22,782 nt of DNA from an archaeon (GTDB taxonomy: Archaea; Iainarchaeota; Iainarchaeia; Iainarchaeales; CSSED10-239). Below, piece after piece: positions 3,620 through 21,248 of this stretch (position 1 is the first letter of the stretch; every line of letters starts with the position of its first letter). The stretch is from the NCBI GenBank assembly GCA_035387745.1, contig DAOOON010000004.1:15115-37896 (forward strand). The letters run 5' to 3'. The notes below the pieces were generated by a model. It saw nothing but the letters and a program-made list of their open reading frames with translations, was not told the origin of the DNA and did not search any database. The translations under genes and the position numbers were made by a program.

Positions 3620-5500
3620 TCAGTTTCTCTTTATTTTAAAAATTCCTAATATAAAAAACAGCATTATTAATAAACAAATAAAGATTATACCCCCCCACAC
3701 TGAATTTCGGAGTGTTAAAAATCCTAATAACTTTGATTGGCTCTTATCTTTTTCTACATCTTCTGTTAATTTTAGCAGAATTGGTTGTTCTAAGACTTCT
3801 CCGTTATTTGATACAAATCTTAATTCTGCCTCAATATCTTCTTTTGGAATATCTCCAATATTAATTTTTGCAGAAAGTGTTTTTGTTTCTCCAGGATTTA
3901 GGGTTATTGTTTGATCAACAACTAAATCAATATTTTGCGGGATATTAGTCAATTCTATCTTATTAATTGTTATTTTATTGCCTTTATTTCTCAAGGTAAT
4001 TTCAAATTCTTTTGAACTGTTTATTTCAACAGAAAGTGTTTTTGGATATGCCAATAATTCTATATTTAGTGGCTCTGATATTTTTACAACATTAATTATA
4101 TAATCTAATTCTTCAGAAAAGTTGTTTGATGTCCCATTTATTTTAACATTTAATGAAGATAAGCCTAGTTGTGTAAAATCACCTGCTGAAACATATATTG
4201 TTACATATTCGTTGTTGTGTTTATCAACGGTTATTCTTGAATCTTGTGTTGTTGCTTCTAAATCGTTATTTGGATTAAGTTCTATTGTTATATTTTCTTT
4301 TACATCTCCTGTATTTTTAAGTAAAATCATAATTTGTATGGTTTTACCTATTGCAAGATTTAAATTTGATTCACTTAAATTCTCTATTTTAAAATCAAAT
4401 TTTGGATTTACTACTAATTTCACGTTTTTTGAAATTGACTTAAGACCATCAAAAAAATTTAATTTTAGGTTGTAAGTACCAGAAATAATCTTATCTGAAA
4501 CTGTAAAGGTAAAAACAATATTTTTGCTTTGATTTGGGTCTAAATTAAATTGACGACTAGAAATATCTACTTTGATTTCTGAATTAACATTGTCTTCAGA
4601 AATATAGAATGTTCTATTTGTATTAGAAATATTTTTTAAAGTATAAGACAACGTTTTACTTTGCCCTTTACTTATGTTTTGAGTTGTTGATGCAGAACCA
4701 GATACTGTAAAATCATTATTTGGCTCTGGGCAATCCTCTGCATAAAGAGAAAATTCTTTAATTATTTTTATCTCTTCGTTTTCTATTCTTAAGGTTAAAT
4801 CAAATTCTTCTCCATCTGTTGCATTATTAGAAACAATTACTGAATAATCTATTTCTTTTTCGTCTCTTAAATATACTGGATTAGAATATTCTGAACTTAT
4901 TACTAATTTTGGACTGCTTAAATAAATACCGTATAATCCATCACTATAGTCGTTTTCTATATCTAAAGTTATTGTATTTGTTCTGCCAATACATACATTT
5001 GTGGTTGAGAGATCCACTGAAAACTCTCCATCTTCTTCGTCTTCTGTAACTTCTATATCTGTTCTAAATTCCTCTGTATCTTGATCTTCTGAATTTAGTA
5101 ATTTAATATAAACTGTTACTTTCGAATCCGATTCATCAAGAGCAGAAACATAGAAAGAATCTGTTAATTCGGAATTTCCTGGGAGAGTATATCTCTTAGA
5201 ATAATTACATTCTAATTCATCTTCATCTTCGCAGTCTGCCCAGACTCTTATTTTTGCAACAACGGGGTTGTTATTTACTATAGTAAAACCAATCTTTGTG
5301 CTAGTGTCTTGCATTAAAGAATATATTCCTTTATCAAATATTAAATCAAGGTTACCAATTTCTGGTTCATTTGTTTCTGCAAAAACTGCTTTTGCAGTAA
5401 ATAAAGACAGTAAAATAAATATTCCAATAACGAGATATTTAAATTTATTATGACTTGATTTTTTATTATATTTTTGAAAATCATTTAATTTTGTCTGCAT
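3620..5500 (-). CDS. Secreted, C-terminally membrane-anchored cell-surface protein with repeated Ig-like (CARDB/NEW3-like) beta-sandwich modules
   Basis: Track ORF 3620..5530. The preferred start is ATG at 5500 (MQTKLN...), preceded by AGAGGA 6 nt upstream and lying 13 nt after the stop of the upstream gene. Signal/anchor segment LVIGIFILLSLFTAKAVFA. At least six repeats of the pattern x-T-L-x-L-x-N-x-G/S...; C-terminal TM VWGGIIFICLLIMLFFILGIF followed by KIKRN. Confidence 0.6.
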   Translation of the reverse strand: MQTKLNDFQKYNKKSSHNKFKYLVIGIFILLSLFTAKAVFAETNEPEIGNLDLIFDKGIYSLMQDTSTKIGFTIVNNNPVVAKIRVWADCEDEDELECNYSKRYTLPGNSELTDSFYVSALDESDSKVTVYIKLLNSEDQDTEEFRTDIEVTEDEEDGEFSVDLSTTNVCIGRTNTITLDIENDYSDGLYGIYLSSPKLVISSEYSNPVYLRDEKEIDYSVIVSNNATDGEEFDLTLRIENEEIKIIKEFSLYAEDCPEPNNDFTVSGSASTTQNISKGQSKTLSYTLKNISNTNRTFYISEDNVNSEIKVDISSRQFNLDPNQSKNIVFTFTVSDKIISGTYNLKLNFFDGLKSISKNVKLVVNPKFDFKIENLSESNLNLAIGKTIQIMILLKNTGDVKENITIELNPNNDLEATTQDSRITVDKHNNEYVTIYVSAGDFTQLGLSSLNVKINGTSNNFSEELDYIINVVKISEPLNIELLAYPKTLSVEINSSKEFEITLRNKGNKITINKIELTNIPQNIDLVVDQTITLNPGETKTLSAKINIGDIPKEDIEAELRFVSNNGEVLEQPILLKLTEDVEKDKSQSKLLGFLTLRNSVWGGIIFICLLIMLFFILGIFKIKRN

Positions 5501-5513
5501 ATACTTTCCTCTT

Positions 5514-6353
5514 TTATTTCCTATATACATATTTAATATATTTTGTTGAGAAAGATAAAATTACAATTATTAAAATAATAATTAAGATTATTTGAAAAAT
5601 TATTGAATTAAAAATAGTTGTTAGATTTATACTTTTTGTAAAAGAAACTAACCCTGTAAAAACAGAAATAACCTGTACTTTGGATTTATCTGTTTCTTTT
5701 TTTGGAAGCTCGAGGGTTACATAACCATAAACCCCATTACATCTATATTCTATTTTTGTTTCTTTTAAGTCTGTTTTAAAAACTCTAACCATTTTTGTTT
5801 CTACATCACTTGGAACAATTACAACGCCTATTGGATATTCTAGATTTATATCTTTTATTCCTATTACATCTAGTTCTTGATCTTTTTTGCTTGAATTATT
5901 AAAAAACAAATCTAATCTATAGTTTCCTGATTCTTTAACATAAACTATAGTGTGTTGTAAATCAATTGGACAACTTCTATTTGCTTTCTGAATAATCTCA
6001 AATTCTATTTTCTTAGAATTTTGTAAATACATTAACTCTATACTTGCTTTATAGGTTGAATCTAAAACATTTTCTTGAGGAGAAATAATTAAAGTAACTT
6101 CTTTAGATTCACTTGATTTAAGTGTGATTTTGTCTTCAGAAAAATAAGACTCGTAAGGAGAAGTATATGACACTAGAGAATAGGTTTGTTCTGTAGAATT
6201 TGGATTATAAACATAAAGAGTAACATAGATGGGTGTATCAACCACAGTTACTTTTTTTGGAAAAGAAACTGTTGGTGTGTTCTCTGCATAAATTATTTGC
6301 AAAGAAAATAATAAAGTAATCATTAAAACTAAAAATACATTTTTTTTAATCAT
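5514..6353 (-). CDS. Secreted, C-terminally membrane-anchored surface protein (279 aa), probable partner of the downstream 3620-5500 gene
   Basis: N-terminal signal peptide MIKKNVFLVLMITLLFSLQIIYA, a beta-rich middle region, and a C-terminal TM IIFQIILIIILIIVILSF followed by basic residues. Same strand as, and almost contiguous with, the next surface-protein gene. Confidence 0.55.
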   Translation of the reverse strand: MIKKNVFLVLMITLLFSLQIIYAENTPTVSFPKKVTVVDTPIYVTLYVYNPNSTEQTYSLVSYTSPYESYFSEDKITLKSSESKEVTLIISPQENVLDSTYKASIELMYLQNSKKIEFEIIQKANRSCPIDLQHTIVYVKESGNYRLDLFFNNSSKKDQELDVIGIKDINLEYPIGVVIVPSDVETKMVRVFKTDLKETKIEYRCNGVYGYVTLELPKKETDKSKVQVISVFTGLVSFTKSINLTTIFNSIIFQIILIIILIIVILSFSTKYIKYVYRK

Positions 6354-9740: not shown

Positions 9741-10268
9741 TTATTCTCTTAGGTAGTTTGATATATCATTAATCTTAATAGTTTTAGAACAAACTTTATT
9801 TAAATGATACGATTTTGTTTTTGGAAAACTAACATTAATTACTTGCTTTCCAAGAGCTTTTATTTCTTCTATTGCTGGAATAAAGTCTGCATCATTAGAA
9901 ACAAGTATTGCAATATCGTAGTTATCCTTGTAAGCATTAACAACCATATCAACTGCAAGTTTAACATCAACCCCTTTTTCTGATTTCTTACCATCTGGTC
10001 TTTTTTCTAATCTACCAAAAAAAATATCCATTACAGAAATTTCTCTTAAACTATCAAAAAACAGTTGTTGCTTTTTATATGCTTCTTCATCATCGTCTAT
10101 ATTTAATACCGAATTATAATATTTAATTACTATTAAATCATCATTTTCTGAGAGAAAATTACAAAACTTTTCAAAATCAATTTTGGTTTTATAAAAAGAA
10201 TTCCTTAAAGAATAATAGAAATTGCTTCCATCAATAAATATCATCACTCGCTTTATAGAATCAGACAT
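9741..10268 (-). CDS. NYN/LabA-like domain protein (predicted PIN-like ribonuclease fold)
   Basis: [15 protein letters not shown] at the N-terminus, then [11 protein letters not shown] and [23 protein letters not shown], the pattern I recall for the NYN (LabA/DUF88) family. Its stop lies 14 nt upstream of the smc start, so the two are likely co-transcribed. Confidence 0.7.
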
Positions 10269-10560
10269 TTAAATCACATAAAAGACCGCCTGCCATTGAA
10301 AATCTTTTGGATTTTCAACAACAGGGAGCTAATATTATATATAGGTAACGAAACGTTTTTAAACATTAAAGTTAGATATTTGCTCACGATAGAAATTACT
10401 GCCATCAATAAATATCATCACTCGTTTTATAGAATCAGACATTTAAATCACTTAAAGAAATCCTACCTTTGTGAACCTAAAAGATCCCCAATGGTAGGGA
10501 GTTAATTATAAATATATTATAGCGATATTTTTTTAAATATTAAAGTTGATAAAATGGCTA
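10215..10560 (-). repeat. Tandem duplication of two ~172-bp units (10215-10388 and 10389-10560). Each unit carries an AT-rich promoter-like segment, a leader hairpin and the first 18 codons of the NYN gene
   Basis: Hand alignment shows 10215-10277 vs 10389-10451 is 60/63 identical (offset 174). The central parts have diverged but each still folds into a hairpin (10289-10325 and 10462-10498). Similarity resumes distally (GGGAG[C/T]TAAT..., TTTTTAAA[C/T]ATTAAAGTT). Confidence 0.8.
10359..10442 (-). pseudogene. Truncated duplicate of the NYN-gene 5' end (27-codon remnant)
   Basis: Reverse complement reads ATG TCT GAT TCT ATA AAA CGA GTG ATG ATA TTT ATT GAT GGC AGT AAT TTC TAT..., i.e. [18 protein letters not shown]. 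This is identical to residues 1-18 of the 9741-10268 product. It then diverges and stops (REQISNFNV*). Confidence 0.7.
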
Positions 10561-11589
10561 TTACAATAACCGTTTGATTTTTAAAAAATAAGGATTATTT
10601 GCCCATATTTGATCTAAAATCTTATAGGAATTAGCAAATTTAAAATATCCTAAATAACTAGATATTGAGGATTTTACTTTGAAGAAGTTCTTTTCGTAAG
10701 TTAAAATCTTTAGTTTCTTTATAAATTTCTTAATATTTCGTTTTCTTAAAAACACATATTCTGGGTATATTTTATATCCTACAAAATCAACTCCGGTTTT
10801 TATTTCAAAAAGGTTGATTTTTTGCTTTGGAATTTCTAGTTTTAACCGTTTCTTTAAATAATATTTTATGTTCTTTTTATAGTAATTTAATTGCTTTTTT
10901 GAATCTTCTAAAATAATAAAATCATCCACATACCTATAATAATATTTAATCTTTAATTTGTGTTTTATATATTGATCTAATTCGTTAAGATATATATTTG
11001 AAAATAATTGACTTGTAAGGTTACCAATAGGAATCCCTTTATCTTCTCCAAAATTCGAATAATCACTATCAATAATATCAAATATTAATTTTTTTGTGTT
11101 CTTACATCTTATCTTTTTTTCAATTACTTGCTTTAAGATAATTTTATCAATACTTGGGAAATATTTTTTAACGTCGCATTTTAAGCAATAACCTGTAAAT
11201 CTAAACTCGCGTGAAATTGTTTTTTTAATGTCTTTTAGAGCTTTGTGTGTACCTTTGTTTTTTCTACAAGCATAAGTTGTTGATATCAGTCGTTTATCAA
11301 AAATCGGTTCAATGACATTAACAAGTGCGTGATGAACTACTCTATCTTTAAATGGCAAATATTTAATTTTTCTTTGTTTTGGATCAAAAACTATAAATTC
11401 GCGATATTTTGATTGAGTGTATGTGTTTGCTAATAGTTCTTCTTGAATCAATAACAGATTTTTCTCTAAATTAAGTGAGAATTCTAATGTTTCTTTTGTT
11501 TGTGGTTTTGCTTTTCTTGCTTTATTGTAAGCTAAAACTAAATTTTTAAAAGATGTTATTTTTGACCATAAATTGTTATATGTTTTCAT
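10561..11589 (-). CDS. DGR-type reverse transcriptase (342 aa)
   Basis: RT motifs: YVDD catalytic box at 10921-10932 (YYRYVDDFIIL). IGNLTSQ at 11008-11028, which is the [I/L/V]GxxxSQ signature that distinguishes DGR RTs from group II intron RTs. CDVKKYFPSID (motif 3/A-like). Compact size with no maturase, endonuclease or RNase H extension. Lies adjacent to a TR/VR pair and an Avd homologue. Confidence 0.9.
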   Translation of the reverse strand: MKTYNNLWSKITSFKNLVLAYNKARKAKPQTKETLEFSLNLEKNLLLIQEELLANTYTQSKYREFIVFDPKQRKIKYLPFKDRVVHHALVNVIEPIFDKRLISTTYACRKNKGTHKALKDIKKTISREFRFTGYCLKCDVKKYFPSIDKIILKQVIEKKIRCKNTKKLIFDIIDSDYSNFGEDKGIPIGNLTSQLFSNIYLNELDQYIKHKLKIKYYYRYVDDFIILEDSKKQLNYYKKNIKYYLKKRLKLEIPKQKINLFEIKTGVDFVGYKIYPEYVFLRKRNIKKFIKKLKILTYEKNFFKVKSSISSYLGYFKFANSYKILDQIWANNPYFLKIKRLL

Positions 11590-11999
11590 GTTTTTTCTTT
11601 TTAAAAAAAGATTATTGTAATATCCCTTTTTTTAAGTACTAATTACAATAACTTTTGCATTTTTTCGGCATATTTGGTATCCATTTTTTAATACAAGGCA
11701 AAAATACCTGCCAGGAATATACCAAATGTAGTTGATCATTTAAATACAATCTTTGTTTGTTTTTAAAAACAAATAATACAAACAAACTCTTTGTAAACCC
11801 ACAAGTAATGTGGGTAGACACTACAACACAACGAAACCCGATGTTGTTGTTCGTGTTAGACGGATTGTTGTTCGCGTTCAAGTTCAGAACTCCGGCGTTC
11901 GTTTCGTTGTTCCAGTTACCGCCACGCAAAAACGGTTGTGTTATTTAGTATAGCCTAGGTTTAAAACCCAAAAGAAGATAGATTGAAATATTTTTTAAA
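11590..11999 (-). ncRNA. Putative DGR RNA: template repeat plus flanking leader and a 231-nt TR-RT spacer
   Basis: Non-coding interval between avd and the RT that contains the TR. A small hairpin CCCACA-AGTAA-TGTGGG (+ strand 11798-11814) sits 7 nt after the TR end, and an 18-nt AT palindrome TTTGTTTTTAAAAACAAA lies at about 11757-11774. By analogy with the BPP-1 DGR, avd-3'/TR/spacer would form one functional RNA. Confidence 0.5.
11821..11934 (-). repeat. DGR template repeat (TR), 114 nt
   Basis: Gap-free 114-nt match to 12887-13000 (95/114 identical). In the frame of the VR it reads FLRGGNWNNETNAGVLNLNANNNPSNTNNNIGFRCVV, with 13 Asn AAY codons. It has no plausible start codon or gene context of its own. 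About 48% GC by hand count. Confidence 0.92.
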
Positions 12000-12332
12000 T
12001 TAAGTTGTTTTTAATAAGCCGCCAAGCAATTTACCTATTTCATTAATTTTTCTTGATGCAATCTCATATTTGTTAAAATTTATAAGATTTAGATCTTTTG
12101 AAAGTCTTATAAATAATCTTAGTTTTTCTATTTCTACACTTGCTATTTTTAAAGACTCTTGTCTTTCAAAATTATAATTATAAGAAACTATATTTTCAAA
12201 GAAAGCAATAAAACATAATTTGATCTTTTCGCCTAAAACATACTTTTCAGATTTTGGGAACTTATTAATTAAAGGCCAAAGCCACAAAAAGAAGTCATAG
12301 CTTTCCTTATATACTTTTAAATCATCAAGCAT
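12000..12332 (-). CDS. avd: Avd (accessory variability determinant), four-helix-bundle protein of the 23S rRNA-IVS protein family
   Basis: DLKVYKESYDFFLWLWPLINKFPKSEKYVLGEKIKLCFIAFFENIV matches the family consensus I recall (DLKVWQKA..L...IY.LT..FPK.E.Y.L..Q..RAA.SI..NIAEG). 110 aa, basic C-terminus. In the canonical position between the target gene and the TR. Confidence 0.85.
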   Translation of the reverse strand: MLDDLKVYKESYDFFLWLWPLINKFPKSEKYVLGEKIKLCFIAFFENIVSYNYNFERQESLKIASVEIEKLRLFIRLSKDLNLINFNKYEIASRKINEIGKLLGGLLKTT

Positions 12333-12336
12333 ATAT

Positions 12337-12717
12337 TCATCTTTTTTGAATTTTTCTTAAAACTCCAGAAATCATTTTTAGTTTTTCTTCTAAAGCATCA
12401 TAATTTTCTTTTAAATCTTCATCAGATATCAGTTTACTATTATTTAATAATATTAAATTAGACTGGGTTATAGAAATTGCATTTCTGGCTTTATTATACT
12501 CTATTGCTTTAAGATTTGTATCATAATTATTATAGCCACTGGCAACATAAGACAATATCTCTATTGCAGTTTTATTTGTATCCTCAATCAGAAAATAAAA
12601 GTATACATCATTATTTTTGTTTTCGCAATCATTTAAAATTGTCAATATTTTCTCAACAACAGGAAACATATCTTGATAGATTTTAAAACTAGCAACTCCT
12701 TTATCAGAGATCCACAT
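12337..12717 (-). CDS. Second, divergent Avd-like four-helix-bundle protein (126 aa from the ATG at 12717; the track ORF starts at TTG 12729)
   Basis: FKIYQDMFPVVEKILTIL...AIEILSYVASGYNNYDTNLKAIEYNKARNAISITQSNLILLNNSKLISDEDLKENYDALEEKLKMISGVLRKI follows the same helix pattern as IVS/Avd proteins (SI.SNIAEG...S.KEF..FL.IA.GS..E..T.L.LA..L.Y......L......I..ML..L). Its stop is 4 nt before the avd start. Confidence 0.6.
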   Translation of the reverse strand: MWISDKGVASFKIYQDMFPVVEKILTILNDCENKNNDVYFYFLIEDTNKTAIEILSYVASGYNNYDTNLKAIEYNKARNAISITQSNLILLNNSKLISDEDLKENYDALEEKLKMISGVLRKIQKR

Positions 12718-12757
12718 TATTTTTCCCAATTTTTAAATTAATTTTTTTTGCGCACGC

Positions 12758-12875: not shown

Positions 12876-14225
12876 TCACGTCGGCTCTACAACACAACGA
12901 AACCCGAAGGCGATGTTCGTGGTAGACGGCTCGCTGTACGCGTACAAGTACAGAACTCCGGCGGTCGTAGCGGCGCTCCAGTCGCCGCCACGCAAAAACG
13001 CATGGGGCGGGCCAGAATCCATAAAAAAACTAACATAACCTAATCCATTATCTTTATTATAATCTGAATTTAATAAAAACAATTCCTTATATCCTATTTT
13101 TGTAAAATCAACATAATCAAAAGCATCAGAATAATTTTCAAATGATCCATTATATTCAAAACCACCTTTCCGTTCATCACAATCTCCAAAATCACTACCT
13201 ATTAATTTATTACAATCCAAATAAAAATCAGAAGTGGTTCTATCAGTCCAATCTAAAACATTTCCTGAAAGATCCCAAACTTCACTGCCATTTGTTAGCT
13301 TTAACATTGCTAGTTGATTTCTTCCGGTTCCTGATTCTGGATCAGCTCCATCATATGATACATTTGCTACAACATCTCCTGCATTCCCTCTTTTTAAAGA
13401 CCCCTGACCAACAGCCCCACTTGACCAATTGCTTGGAACAACTTCAATATTTCGAGCAATAGTCATCCATTCTTCGTTTGTTATTAAATGACCCCCAATG
13501 GATTCACACGCCAATATTGAATCTGTTTGATTAATATCTGTTAGTGGATAACCTTCTGCACTGCTTACTATTGTTCTGCTAGGCACACTATATTTACAAC
13601 TTGCATTTATGTTATTTTGCCAAGTTAAATATAATTCATTTTTACAACTGGCGTTAGTATCGCCGAGTCCATCTCCATTTTCATCTACTTTCATCTCATA
13701 TTTGGCAACACAAAAACCTTCGGTGCCATAAAGATAATTTCCTGGAACTGGAACAAAGCCTGTAGGGCATTGACTAGGAGCTGGGCTTCTGTTTGTGTTT
13801 TTTACATTATTAAAGGTTAGGTAACTGCCGTCTTCTAGTAATAAAGCAATTGATATTTTTTCTTCGTTAATAATCCCTAAAGGAAGCATGAACTCGCCTG
13901 CGTGGGTGATCTCTTTTTCTGGTTCTAGCGGGATATAGTCGTTATAGCCTAGAAGAGAATAACCTACAACTTTAAAATTAATATCAGTATTGCTTGGAGG
14001 ATAATAATCAAAGATATACATGCCGTTTTGTGCGCTTTTAAAGCGCATGAAGGATTGCTTGTCGTTTAGAACATTATAGTTGACAAGACTATCAGTTTTT
14101 GAAACCGAAGAATTTGTAAAGTTTTTTCCCCAGTTTAAAACTATAGTTACAAGAATTACTGCAACTACTACTAAAAGAATTGTTGCAACTATTGGAGTTA
14201 TAGCTTTTGCTTTACTATTTTTCAT
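12876..14225 (-). CDS. DGR target (variable) protein: archaeal type IV pilin-like N-terminus fused to an FGE-sulfatase/C-type-lectin-fold domain with a C-terminal VR
   Basis: N-terminus MKNSKAKA/ITPIVATILLVVVAVILVTIVLNW matches the archaeal class III signal peptide and pilin hydrophobic core. FGE-sulfatase-like motifs: GFVPVPGN...GFCVAKYEMK, ACESIGGHLITNEEWMTIARN, WDLSGNVLDWTD, and terminal RGGDW...GFRCVV. The VR lies at the extreme C-terminus, as in known CLec-fold DGR targets. Confidence 0.88.
   Translation of the reverse strand: MKNSKAKAITPIVATILLVVVAVILVTIVLNWGKNFTNSSVSKTDSLVNYNVLNDKQSFMRFKSAQNGMYIFDYYPPSNTDINFKVVGYSLLGYNDYIPLEPEKEITHAGEFMLPLGIINEEKISIALLLEDGSYLTFNNVKNTNRSPAPSQCPTGFVPVPGNYLYGTEGFCVAKYEMKVDENGDGLGDTNASCKNELYLTWQNNINASCKYSVPSRTIVSSAEGYPLTDINQTDSILACESIGGHLITNEEWMTIARNIEVVPSNWSSGAVGQGSLKRGNAGDVVANVSYDGADPESGTGRNQLAMLKLTNGSEVWDLSGNVLDWTDRTTSDFYLDCNKLIGSDFGDCDERKGGFEYNGSFENYSDAFDYVDFTKIGYKELFLLNSDYNKDNGLGYVSFFMDSGPPHAFLRGGDWSAATTAGVLYLYAYSEPSTTNIAFGFRCVVEPT
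12887..13000 (-). repeat. DGR variable region (VR), the last ~38 codons of the target gene
   Basis: 114-nt counterpart of the TR. It reads FLRGGDWSAATTAGVLYLYAYSEPSTTNIAFGFRCVV. It differs from the TR at 19 positions, 17 of them at TR adenines. About 60% GC by hand count in an AT-rich genome. It ends 8 nt (12879-12886) before the stop codon at 12876-12878. Confidence 0.92.
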
Positions 14226-18785: not shown

Positions 18786-21248
18786 ATGATGATTATGAAT
18801 AGGTGTTTTTTATTATTGTTTTTTTTAGTATTGCTAATTGGAAATGTTTATGCAATTACAATTAATGAAATAACAATAACTCCTGATCTAGATATATCTT
18901 ATTTTGGAAGATACCAAATTGATGCAAATATTACAGAGTATTCTGGAAACGACGTTAATCTTTTAGTTTCTGCAATCAATGGGGATGGTGGAACGTGTTG
19001 GGATTATTTTGTGGATGGTACTTGCTCAAGCGAAACGCCTTCAACTTACTCTATGGATTATAATGAAACAACTGGTTTTTGGCACTATGATAGAGTATAT
19101 CCTGACACCATCTATCCTGAAATTATATTTATTGATTCTCCAACAAATTGGAATAACGCTCCCTCATGGGTAAATCTATGGAGACAAAATTATCATATCT
19201 TTAAAATGTATAATAGTTTTGAAATGGATTCAAACATGAATCTATGGATTGAATTTAATACTGAACCAGTAAGCACAAATAATTCAGGAGATCTTTTTGT
19301 TTATGTTGTGGGAGCTGGCGTTCCATTAAGTTATTTTACAAGCGATTGGAGAGATGATTCAAATACACAACTTGTTGGAACGATTTCAAGGAATACGGCA
19401 TTTAACCACGATCACACACCTTCAACACATTATGTAAGACATCATCTGATTCCAATAACTGCAAACCCTGATGGTACAATTGGAACAAATCATGTTAATA
19501 TATCTGATGGCAATTTCTATATTGTTCTTTATCAAGACTCCACAGCAACGAATAGAGGTTGGAATCTTGCATATAAACCAACAAGTCTTTGTGATAACAC
19601 CGACAATTGGTTTACAGCAAACAGAACAGGAGGAAACTGGAACCTACCGATTCATAGATCTGGCTGTTCAGACGCTCACATTCATTTTGCAAGAAGAGAA
19701 ACTTACAATGATGGAGTAAATTTAGAAGTGACTGCTGTTGATGGAGAAGACATTACAACTCTTGATGTAAACTATTATTTTGCAGAACTACCAAACCTTG
19801 CACCAAACGAAACTTCTTTTATCACACCAATTCCTTTAGCAACATACGACACTAATTCCATAGAACTTTCTTGGAATCCTGCAACTGATCCAAATAATGA
19901 TGATTTGACTTATGATATCAATTATATGGATAGCGACGGAAATATATTTGTAATTGATAACAATTTTACAGACACAAACATTTCTTGGGACGTTTCTGCA
20001 CTAGAAGATGGAAATTATTTAATTCTTGGAAGTGTTTGTGATACTGAACCACTATGTACGGACTTTAATCTAAGTGATTATTTCTATATTAATCGTTCTG
20101 AACCAATCTATTCTCTTTCAACAATCACAATTGCGTCAAATTATTTTTATACAGACTATGCAAAAGTTGGAAGCCAAATAAATTTGTCTTTTATTTCTAC
20201 AGGAACATTATCAGAAGACCTAAATGTGATTTTCTATGCAAATGGTGTAGAAGTAACTGGAGACATAAATGTTACAAATAATACAAATGATTACAATGCA
20301 ACTTATGTTATACAGGAAGAAGACGATGATGGCATTGTTGGCTTTACAATAAGTGCAACTAATCTTGACTATGATTATTTTGATACAACAGATGATTCTT
20401 ATGTGACAATAGATAACACTATTGCAGATCAAGACCAAGACAACATCCCTGATGCAAATGATACTTTTGTTGGGAGTTTAGGTATTGTTGAAACAGAAGG
20501 AATTGATGATTTAAATATCACAATTGATGACGACACAAATATTGTAGGAATATTTACTGGTGTACAAACCATAAAAATTTATGACGCCCAAACACCAATT
20601 TTGGAATTTGATCATAACTTTTCAGAAAGCACACTTGATTTATCTGTAATAAAAATTATTAAAACAAATGCAGGCGTGGTTGTTGACTTAAACGGGCAAC
20701 TTCAAGAAGACCAGAACAAAACACTTTATCTTGAAAATAATAATTTTATTTCGCTTTGTGTAGAAAATGAAGCAATAACTTCAATTTCAGACATTAGTTC
20801 TAATTGCTTGGATGCTAACGAATATGATTTTACTGAATGCTTAAGCGAAAGCTATTCTAGTAACGGAATAGATTGTGTTCTAAATGGAAACCTAATAACA
20901 GTAAGTAATCTTAGATATTCAGGAATACTTGGAACAGTAAGAACAACAAGTGGTGGAAATTCTATTTCAAAAGAGGCAGATGATACAGAAGAGATTATTT
21001 CTGAAATAAACACCGACACAGAAAATACAGACAATAATCCAATTATTGTTACGCCAGAAGATAAAGACCCAGAATATAATGTGGTCTCCTCTGATAGCCC
21101 AGATTATAAACCAAATGATGAAATGCCACCAATAGATTACTCTAGAAAAAGCAAAAACACAACAACCATTTGGATAATTACCTATTTTATTTGTGCCTTA
21201 ATAATTGGTATAACAATATATCTATTCACTAAAATAAGATACAGATAA
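18786..21248 (+). CDS. Large secreted, C-terminally anchored surface protein (820 aa) with an FN3-like module, a thrombospondin-type-3-like Asp-rich repeat and an uncharacterised Trp/Cys-rich N-terminal domain
   Basis: Signal peptide MNRCFLLLFFLVLLIGNVYA. ELSWNPATDPNNDDLTYDINY is FN3-like. DQDQDNIPDANDTF is a Ca-binding TSP3-like repeat. An acidic, Thr-rich stalk precedes the C-terminal TM TIWIITYFICALIIGITIYLF, followed by TKIRYR. Confidence 0.6.
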   Translation: MMIMNRCFLLLFFLVLLIGNVYAITINEITITPDLDISYFGRYQIDANITEYSGNDVNLLVSAINGDGGTCWDYFVDGTCSSETPSTYSMDYNETTGFWHYDRVYPDTIYPEIIFIDSPTNWNNAPSWVNLWRQNYHIFKMYNSFEMDSNMNLWIEFNTEPVSTNNSGDLFVYVVGAGVPLSYFTSDWRDDSNTQLVGTISRNTAFNHDHTPSTHYVRHHLIPITANPDGTIGTNHVNISDGNFYIVLYQDSTATNRGWNLAYKPTSLCDNTDNWFTANRTGGNWNLPIHRSGCSDAHIHFARRETYNDGVNLEVTAVDGEDITTLDVNYYFAELPNLAPNETSFITPIPLATYDTNSIELSWNPATDPNNDDLTYDINYMDSDGNIFVIDNNFTDTNISWDVSALEDGNYLILGSVCDTEPLCTDFNLSDYFYINRSEPIYSLSTITIASNYFYTDYAKVGSQINLSFISTGTLSEDLNVIFYANGVEVTGDINVTNNTNDYNATYVIQEEDDDGIVGFTISATNLDYDYFDTTDDSYVTIDNTIADQDQDNIPDANDTFVGSLGIVETEGIDDLNITIDDDTNIVGIFTGVQTIKIYDAQTPILEFDHNFSESTLDLSVIKIIKTNAGVVVDLNGQLQEDQNKTLYLENNNFISLCVENEAITSISDISSNCLDANEYDFTECLSESYSSNGIDCVLNGNLITVSNLRYSGILGTVRTTSGGNSISKEADDTEEIISEINTDTENTDNNPIIVTPEDKDPEYNVVSSDSPDYKPNDEMPPIDYSRKSKNTTTIWIITYFICALIIGITIYLFTKIRYR

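Follow-up and report, generated by a model that had tools for sequence, protein, structure and literature searches.

A diversity-generating retroelement target with an archaeal type IV pilin module and a C-type-lectin-fold head: a proposed re-tunable adhesin of a DPANN archaeon

The stretch of DNA analyzed here (contig DAOOON010000004.1, 22,782 nt, in the following termed the window) stems from an Iainarchaeota-like archaeon of the DPANN group and carries a complete cassette of a diversity-generating retroelement (DGR). According to the listing of open reading frames (ORFs), its target gene (12876..14225, minus strand) encodes a pilin-like variable protein of 449 amino acids, in which a module homologous to archaeal type IV pilins is followed by a head whose fold is of the C-type-lectin (CLec) kind and that ends in the diversified region. 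On balance, we favor the interpretation that this gene specifies a DGR-diversified modular type IV pilin, which we propose to be a re-tunable adhesin. DGRs are abundant in bacteria of the candidate phyla radiation (CPR) and in DPANN archaea, and the site at which their targets act is unsettled. For one large family of CPR/DPANN targets we propose a localization on a type IV pilin carrier, with a predicted cut A8|I9 in the protein studied here. The archaeal version of this carrier occurs in Iainarchaeota and their relatives; in CPR the same head and DGR are found on bacterial prepilin N-termini.

The target protein and its retroelement

The genes for the reverse transcriptase (RT; 342 aa, 10561..11589, RVT_1 E 1.5e-18) and the accessory protein Avd (110 aa, 12000..12332, bAvd E 2.8e-20), the template repeat (TR; 11820..11934) and the target gene are all located on the minus strand. 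The TR was found by repeat detection and by alignment to the variable region (VR; 12886..13000, minus strand), which covers residues 409-447 of the target and ends two residues before the stop codon. The two align without gaps over 115 nt with 20 mismatches, 17 of them at template adenines, the remaining three being T>C, T>G and T>A; 14 residues of the VR are changed. A location of the VR at the C-terminal end of the target had been claimed in the original prediction, which was made from the sequence alone, and its position bears this out. Seventeen codons of the TR are variable, including 13 of the AAY type, so that about 10^17.8 sequences are possible, and none of the codons reachable by adenine mutagenesis of the TR is a stop codon. 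An adenine-biased VR/TR pair together with genes for RT and Avd in the cassette identifies the 449-aa protein as a DGR variable protein.

The target ORF opens with MKNSKAKAITPIVATILLVVVAVILVTIVLNWGKNF, just as quoted in the original prediction (MKNSKAKA|ITPIVATILL…), where this start was taken as an archaeal class III signal peptide. The leader MKNSKAKA (residues 1-8, 14202..14225, minus strand) has a lysine at position -2 and an alanine at position -1 of the predicted cut, and K7 and A8 stand ahead of, not behind, the hydrophobic domain ITPIVATILLVVVAVILVTIVL. This H-domain or pilin α1 helix (residues 9-42, 14100..14201, minus strand) is apparent from hydropathy (maximum Kyte-Doolittle mean over 19 residues, 3.41), from conservation and as a helix in the AlphaFold2 (AF2) model. 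Archaeal class III signals feature a charged residue at -2 and G, A or S at -1, and the processing sites predicted by FlaFind for Haloferax PilA1-6 read RA|VS and DA|VS (PMC4371748); the KA|IT of the target follows the same pattern. The Sec-type signals encoded in the window, e.g. MIKKNVFLVLMITLLFSLQIIYA|E and ...LLIGNVYA|I, have their cleavage motif behind the hydrophobic core. A FlaFind-like pattern ([KRDE][GA][ALIFQMVED][ILMVTAS]x3) that fails the target for its proline at +3 was discarded as too strict because Haloferax PilA1-6 with RA|VSP... are FlaFind positives (PMC4371748).

In total, 569 homologues of the target protein were found. The motif [KR]-[AGS]|[ILV]-[STE]-[PAS]-[LIV]-[IV]-A-T-I-L-L...W-G-K-x-F is kept in nearly all of 56 full-length homologues, among which the preceding leader has about 4 residues at its shortest and about 30 at its longest, and I13, A14, I16, L17, L18, V20, V23, W32 and G33 show a conservation of at least 90%. 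Taken alone, the target bears a suggestive resemblance to pilins, its only sequence match in the PDB being the pilus subunit 8FK7 (E 0.018), and Pilin_N is matched at E<=0.01 in only 11 of the 56 homologues. At the level of the family, sequence comparison lends strong support to the resemblance. A profile of residues 1-145, built from 24 homologues and run with hmmsearch against PDB sequences, matches the pili or pilins of Pyrobaculum calidifontis (8FK7, E 3e-9), Cuniculiplasma (8REY, E 3.4e-5), Natrinema (9MYG and 8GI2, E 2.8e-4 and 1.2e-3), Haloferax volcanii (8FJ5, type IV pilus, E 9.5e-4) and Ignicoccus (3J1R and 5KYH, Iho670, E ~0.013), the identities of these entries having been taken from PMC10334743 and PMC12448462. 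The alignment with 8FK7 covers residues 6-97 of the query, that is the helix and part of the β-domain. In the mature chains 8REY_M, 3J1R_A and 5KYH_A the first residue is the one at the profile position aligned to I9, which leads us to predict the cut between A8 and I9.

The claim of a class III signal is therefore upheld, as K7 and A8 precede the H-domain and the family profile is homologous to solved archaeal pilins, some of which start, in their mature form, at the equivalent of I9; an ordinary Sec signal or signal anchor is not what is found at this N-terminus. The description as a pilin-like N-terminus proved right with regard to the signal and too narrow in its extent, since the resemblance goes beyond a signal peptide and comprises a full module of helix and β-sandwich. 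The globular β-sandwich (residues 43-145, 13791..14099, minus strand) is indicated by AF2 strands, hmmsearch and Foldseek. A long N-terminal α-helix that is followed by a β-sandwich and is homologous with it to filament subunits constitutes the architecture of archaeal pilins.

Residues 146-449 (12879..13790, minus strand) make up a CLec-fold head of the formylglycine-generating enzyme (FGE) type, as recognized by Pfam, Foldseek and a search of a viral library. Pfam FGE-sulfatase (PF03781) matches residues 197-330 (E 9.3e-7, 29.2 bits, curated cut-off 23.3) and is found in 45 of the 56 homologues. The AF2 model was computed from an alignment of 56 sequences (pLDDT 80.3, pTM 0.80), and a single-sequence model with a pLDDT of 37 was not used. 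It features a helix at residues 11-42 (pLDDT 82-88), strands at residues 60-141 (pLDDT 77-96) and a large domain at residues 150-449. In a Foldseek comparison with the PDB, two DGR variable proteins rank first, namely TaqVP (3.6e-7) and Mtd (3e-5), and many FGEs come next, with a probability of 1.00 in all these cases; the N-terminal part matches the P. arsenaticum pilus 6W8U (prob 0.99) as well as FN3 domains. TM-scores calculated over the whole chain reach only 0.2-0.4, which we attribute to the multi-domain chain. The search of the viral library returned phage tail-fibre and SUMF-like proteins. The CLec/FGE fold that had been claimed for this part of the protein is thus confidently modeled; of the Mtd and AvpA-type folds suggested for comparison, the head resembles the former, together with TaqVP and FGEs, and not the latter. 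All eight cysteines of the protein reside in the head, as do most of its 11 N-glycosylation sequons (2.4 per 100 aa as compared to 0.3-1.1 in cytoplasmic neighbors), a composition that fits a predicted extracellular location.

Pilus genes, proposed mechanism and alternatives

Within the 22,782-nt window there are no pilus genes. They are located leftward of it, as seen on the 81-kb contig Ga0116242_10000544, which carries an identical target, and on a 99%-identical NCBI contig; the machinery operon lies about 18-25 kb from the target on the same contig. A cognate prepilin peptidase had been anticipated elsewhere in the genome, and a FlaK/PibD-like protein of 246 aa is indeed encoded on the target's contig at a distance of about 18 kb (L009:2490-3230). 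It matches Arc_PepC_II (3e-10, above the cut-off) and NCBIfam FlaK_Arch (3.6e-11), has FlaK (3S0X, full length) as its only match in the PDB and contains the motifs YQD25 and GEGD90. A PilB/FlaI-family protein of 839 aa (P0121), similar to afGspE (2OAP, 4e-40) and FlaI (9e-27), is encoded at L009:1-2413 on the minus strand, equivalent to L010:10001-12520 on the plus strand, about 6-9 kb past window position 1. It has an N-terminal extension of ~400 aa. Two T2SSF platform genes are situated beside the gene for this ATPase-like protein. An ATPase in combination with a split platform characterizes the archaeal type IV filament (TFF) 'System 1', which has been reported in DPANN (bioRxiv 10.64898/2026.04.22.720090), and the operon matches this system.

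In the mechanism that we propose, the precursor would be inserted via Sec, and its 8-residue basic leader would be cut off between A8 and I9 by the neighboring FlaK/PibD-type peptidase. The α1 helix and the β-sandwich (residues 9-145) would then serve as a carrier pilin module that retains and presents the head. The head (residues 146-449) would face outward, rigidly attached, disulfide-rich and probably N-glycosylated, with its last 39 residues forming the ligand-binding surface. By adenine-specific mutagenic retrohoming, the DGR with its RT, Avd and TR would rewrite up to 17 codons of this surface, allowing for about 10^18 different binding specificities. The protein would be incorporated as a low-abundance/minor or tip subunit into a type IV filament, whose assembly would fall to the neighboring machinery with its ATPase-like protein and two platform genes. 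Such a position is the most likely one because the head is bulky, and by analogy to bacterial modular pilins (PMC8179133) the target would most probably be a minor or tip subunit. It would function as an adhesin that can be re-tuned and that attaches to host cells, to surfaces or to particles. The original prediction spoke of a putatively host-dependent nano-sized archaeon, a description that derives only from the relatives being Iainarchaeota or other DPANN.

Several observations weigh against this interpretation. An identical 449-aa target protein is present on six contigs from at least four samples. Compared with the window, contigs L001-L004 differ by 5-18 single-nucleotide polymorphisms over 11-20 kb, with the entire target including the VR unchanged. 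The VR is identical in the consensus assemblies of four samples in a population that is 99.9% identical overall, and these consensus sequences give no sign of VR turnover between samples; ongoing diversification is therefore presumed at best. P0121 lacks Walker A (GGDANLFIS in place of GxxSGKTT) and also the IEDT box, and is for this reason no more than a putative assembly ATPase. The expectation that pilus assembly genes would be found in the genome consequently holds for the PilB/FlaI homologue and the two T2SSF genes as such and falls short at the missing Walker A motif. The loss of both motifs is common to all 19 close homologues of P0121, two distant ones keep them, and judging from this pattern the protein may be a conserved pseudo-ATPase of this DPANN clade. 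A standalone major pilin or any other gene with a class III signal was not found in the window plus L009/L010 (~43 kb). Finally, pLDDT amounts to 91-97 across the junction of pilin module and head, and the model suggests a rigid bulky subunit that would not fit into a filament body. The degenerate ATPase, the lack of a major pilin gene nearby and the rigidly attached head of 300 aa in the model all speak for an alternative in which the protein is cleaved and stays unpolymerized, so that the head would be held at the cell surface either by the α1 helix as a membrane anchor or in a short bindosome-like assembly. A precedent is provided by the bindosome, whose large binding proteins bear signals of class III (PMC3047682). 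This possibility is at odds with the N-terminal 145 residues, which form a full pilin module including the β-sandwich and are homologous to real filament subunits, with the existence of standalone module versions of ~150-225 aa that could build a filament body, and with the two platform genes that have been kept beside the ATPase-like gene. We consider it a serious though rather doubtful option.

It is far less probable that the N-terminus is a mere signal anchor or Sec signal whose resemblance to pilins is compositional. Hydrophobic helices draw spurious matches, and the single-sequence scores of the target remain below the curated cut-offs, with 17.2 bits for Pilin_N (PF07790, cut-off 25.2) and 14.6 bits for TIGR02537 (cut-off 20), a further point against the favored interpretation. 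Yet the 8FK7 profile match passes from the helix into the β-domain, [KR]-[AGS] is situated right before the H-domain whatever the leader length, and the genuine Sec-type signals in the window look different. Relatives, in addition, reach curated cut-offs: neighboring proteins with the same module on the related DPANN contig L006 score 22.3-23 bits against a cut-off of 20, P0178 passes Pilin_N with 25.3 bits, and P0018 carries PF07790. An enzyme of the formylglycine-generating or sulfoxide-synthase type is hardly conceivable. Such a function is hinted at by the Pfam FGE-sulfatase match and by the NCBI name 'SUMF1/EgtB/PvdO family nonheme iron enzyme' given to P0034, P0044 and P0054, but the segment with the catalytic cysteines of FGE (Cys336/Cys341 in the human enzyme) is equivalent to the hypervariable VR of the target. 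As neither VR nor TR contains a cysteine, the catalytic pair is missing and the naming as a nonheme iron enzyme is misleading. The pilin N-terminus also argues against an enzyme, and so do the best structural matches, TaqVP and Mtd, which are non-enzymatic DGR variable proteins. A different role of the very same architecture, namely evasion or defence, for instance escape from viruses for which the pilus is a receptor or the capture of virions, appears improbable to us; it concerns the role only and is compatible with a modular pilin. A virus-host arms race has been raised for cellular DGR targets (Roux et al., 2021; PMC8144416), and the fold of the head is common to phage receptor-binding proteins. 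On the other hand, variation is limited to the canonical CLec ligand-binding face, which in Mtd and TvpA alters what is bound, and no link to defence genes exists at the locus.

Re-use of the module and of the head in other lineages

The 145-aa pilin module is N-terminal in all 192 representative clusters, in proteins that range from standalone versions of ~150-225 aa, which could be filament subunits, to more than 1000 aa. Besides the CLec head, it is combined with an NHL propeller, GLUG/Peptidase_M26_N, Lcl_C (DUF1566), Fn3_assoc and DUF5122. On a related DPANN contig of 663 kb (L006:8515-13288), three adjacent genes encode proteins of 494, 445 and 617 aa with a near-identical pilin N-terminus of ~60 aa and differing C-terminal domains, the target homologue being flanked by the other two. 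A Peptidase_A24 gene is located beside SRP54/FtsY 8 kb downstream of this trio, and no RT is encoded within 10 kb of it. One homologue, P0003 (453 aa), is identical to the target for about its first 172 residues, which take in the pilin module and reach into the head, and then continues with a different CLec head resembling P0040, apparently a case of head swapping on a constant carrier.

The head, for its part, is carried by four kinds of N-termini: the archaeal KA|ISP type, an EppA-like type (KAQ/KGQ..E), Sec signals and the G|FTLIE prepilin type of CPR (PF07963). A scan of GTDB species genomes yielded 78 loci, 11 of which are of the archaeal pilin and 19 of the bacterial prepilin type; an RT is encoded at a distance of up to 10 kb in 25 of the 78. 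The 11 archaeal-type loci belong to Ca. Forterrea multitransposorum (two copies), Ca. Iainarchaeum, Ca. ainarchaeum and uncultured archaea. The EppA-like class III signals, in which Q occupies position +1 and E position +5 (KAQVSxE), are found in the archaeal head relatives P0073, P0090 and P0097, and a 148-aa pilin-like gene of the KAQVSxE type (L048:626) is located at a distance of about 9 kb to a pilin-CLec target of Forterrea.

Mismatches between TR and VR concentrate at adenines in loci of both types. For the archaeal pilin type, the proportions are 16/16 in L011, 16/16 in L013, 10/11 in L015 and 14/17 in L048, and for the bacterial prepilin type 9/10 in L038, 10/10 in L043, 10/11 in L050, 14/16 in L084 and 10/10 in L087. 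A survey of other DPANN DGR targets for the pilin N-terminus had been recommended, and this N-terminus is indeed common to L011, L013, L015 and L048. The TR/VR check assumed a C-terminal VR and left out the ~1500-aa proteins of L018, L022, L025, L030, L052, L060 and L079. Gammaproteobacteria, Anaerolineae and a number of CPR genomes encode these proteins beside RT and Avd, and their architecture is quite unlike that of the target, the CLec head being N-proximal.

The RT of the window shows 49-56% identity to RTs beside archaeal pilin-CLec targets, and its identity to the RT of a Saccharibacteria DGR is 47%. Archaea and CPR bacteria thus have both cassette and head in common and differ in the pilin module, which is specific to each domain. 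It is tempting, if tentative, to go further and to assume that one DGR cassette, consisting of RT, Avd and an FGE-type CLec head, was passed between bacteria of the CPR and archaea of the DPANN group and was refitted onto each domain's own type IV pilin module. Pilus-borne hypervariable lectin heads would then be an attachment device common to ultra-small episymbionts of both.

The surroundings of the cassette in the window show further features. A divergent Avd-like ORF of 130 aa (12337..12729, minus strand; 23S_rRNA_IVP E 1.7e-5, a weak match below the cut-off) is located directly upstream of the canonical bAvd gene, resulting in two tandem Avd-like genes; in strain variants it is called as 126 aa. 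A direct repeat of 68 nt is present at 10215-10282 and 10389-10456 with 94% identity. Its first copy overlaps the 5' end of an NYN-domain gene (9741-10268, minus strand), the second falls into the spacer that precedes the 3' end of the RT gene, and the pair could be the scar of a duplication where the DGR cassette ends. A viral origin of the locus was rejected because its neighbors encode SerRS, FKBP, SMC, adenylate kinase and PRPP synthase. Three ORFs (3620-5530 and 5514-6353, both minus strand, and 18786-21248, plus strand) specify large proteins that have Sec-type signals or are anchored at the N-terminus, contain many N-glycosylation sequons and match no Pfam family convincingly; they are probably further surface proteins. 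The 636-aa protein among them has 626 aa in related strains.

Comparison with known systems

DGRs of DPANN and CPR whose targets have CLec folds, modular pilins in bacteria and class III signals on large binding proteins in archaea have all been described before. A global survey found CPR and archaeal DGR targets to lack recognizable membrane or other domains and left their localization open (PMC8144416). As cited in PMC6642488, 'putative pilin structures' were reportedly mentioned for such targets by Paul et al. (2017), and an earlier description of such targets is therefore possible. Our full-text literature search combining DGR, DPANN and pilin found no description of the architecture presented here. 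It extends the concept of the modular pilin to archaea. If the head is indeed displayed on the tip of a filament, it would be an obvious candidate for how symbionts find and switch partners. Should the cassette really have been exchanged between the domains, the question raised by Roux et al. (2021) about the location of CPR and archaeal DGR targets (PMC8144416) would be answered.

The DGR variable proteins Mtd from Bordetella phage, TvpA from Treponema and TaqVP from Thermus resemble the target in having a CLec fold of the FGE type with the VR at its extreme C-terminus, an AAY-rich TR, adenine-specific mismatches and adjoining RT and Avd. Sequence identity of the target to proteins of this type is only 12-15%. 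Mtd forms the tip of a phage tail fibre and TvpA and TaqVP are bacterial proteins, whereas the target carries an archaeal type IV pilin module. AvpA and other variable proteins of Nanoarchaeota are, like the target, DGR targets of DPANN archaea with a CLec fold. In the case of AvpA (256 aa), this fold differs from the FGE subclass of Mtd and TvpA (Handa et al., 2016; PMC5006420), and its VR lies inside the protein with 46 residues behind it (PMC5006420), unlike the nearly terminal VR of the target. AvpA was neither among the matches of the target by phmmer against the PDB (E<=1) nor among the top 50 Foldseek matches, and the words pilin, signal, transmembrane and N-terminal are all absent from the text on AvpA (PMC5006420).

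The sugar-binding bindosome proteins of Sulfolobus are extracellular ligand binders of large size that are made with class III signals, as is proposed for the target, and are processed by PibD (PMC3047682). They differ in being ABC-transporter binding proteins that are undiversified, lack a CLec fold and are assembled by the dedicated Bas system (PMC3047682). A DGR is also reported to diversify the adhesive component of a pilus in Bacteroides (bioRxiv 10.1101/2024.11.15.621889); these are type V pili of gut bacteria, which have an unrelated assembly pathway.

Much closer in design are the bacterial modular pilins. PilB with its vWA module and PilC with its lectin module from S. sanguinis (Raynaud et al., 2021; PMC8179133) combine, just as the target does, a small pilin carrier with a bulky C-terminal effector or adhesion module, and carriers in both cases are paired with many different heads. 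The bacterial proteins are predicted to reside at the filament tip, in a survey that covered bacteria only (PMC8179133). They contain the N-methyl motif IPR012902, whereas the target is of the class III/Pilin_N type without G|FTLIE and has a head that is hypermutated by a DGR. The target works like a modular pilin, yet stands outside the bacterial family.

The prepilin-CLec targets of CPR, e.g. those of Wolfebacteria (P0120/L038) and Saccharibacteria (L043, L084, L087), resemble the target in both its head and its cassette. Their CLec heads are 33-39% identical to that of the target, their RT (up to 47% identity) and Avd are homologous, TR and VR differ in an adenine-specific manner and the N-terminus is that of a type IV pilin. 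The difference resides in the carrier, which in the CPR proteins exhibits the bacterial prepilin motif G/S/A|FT(L/I)(I/V/L)E (PF07963) and in the target is represented by the archaeal KA|ITPIVATILL together with an archaeal β-sandwich.

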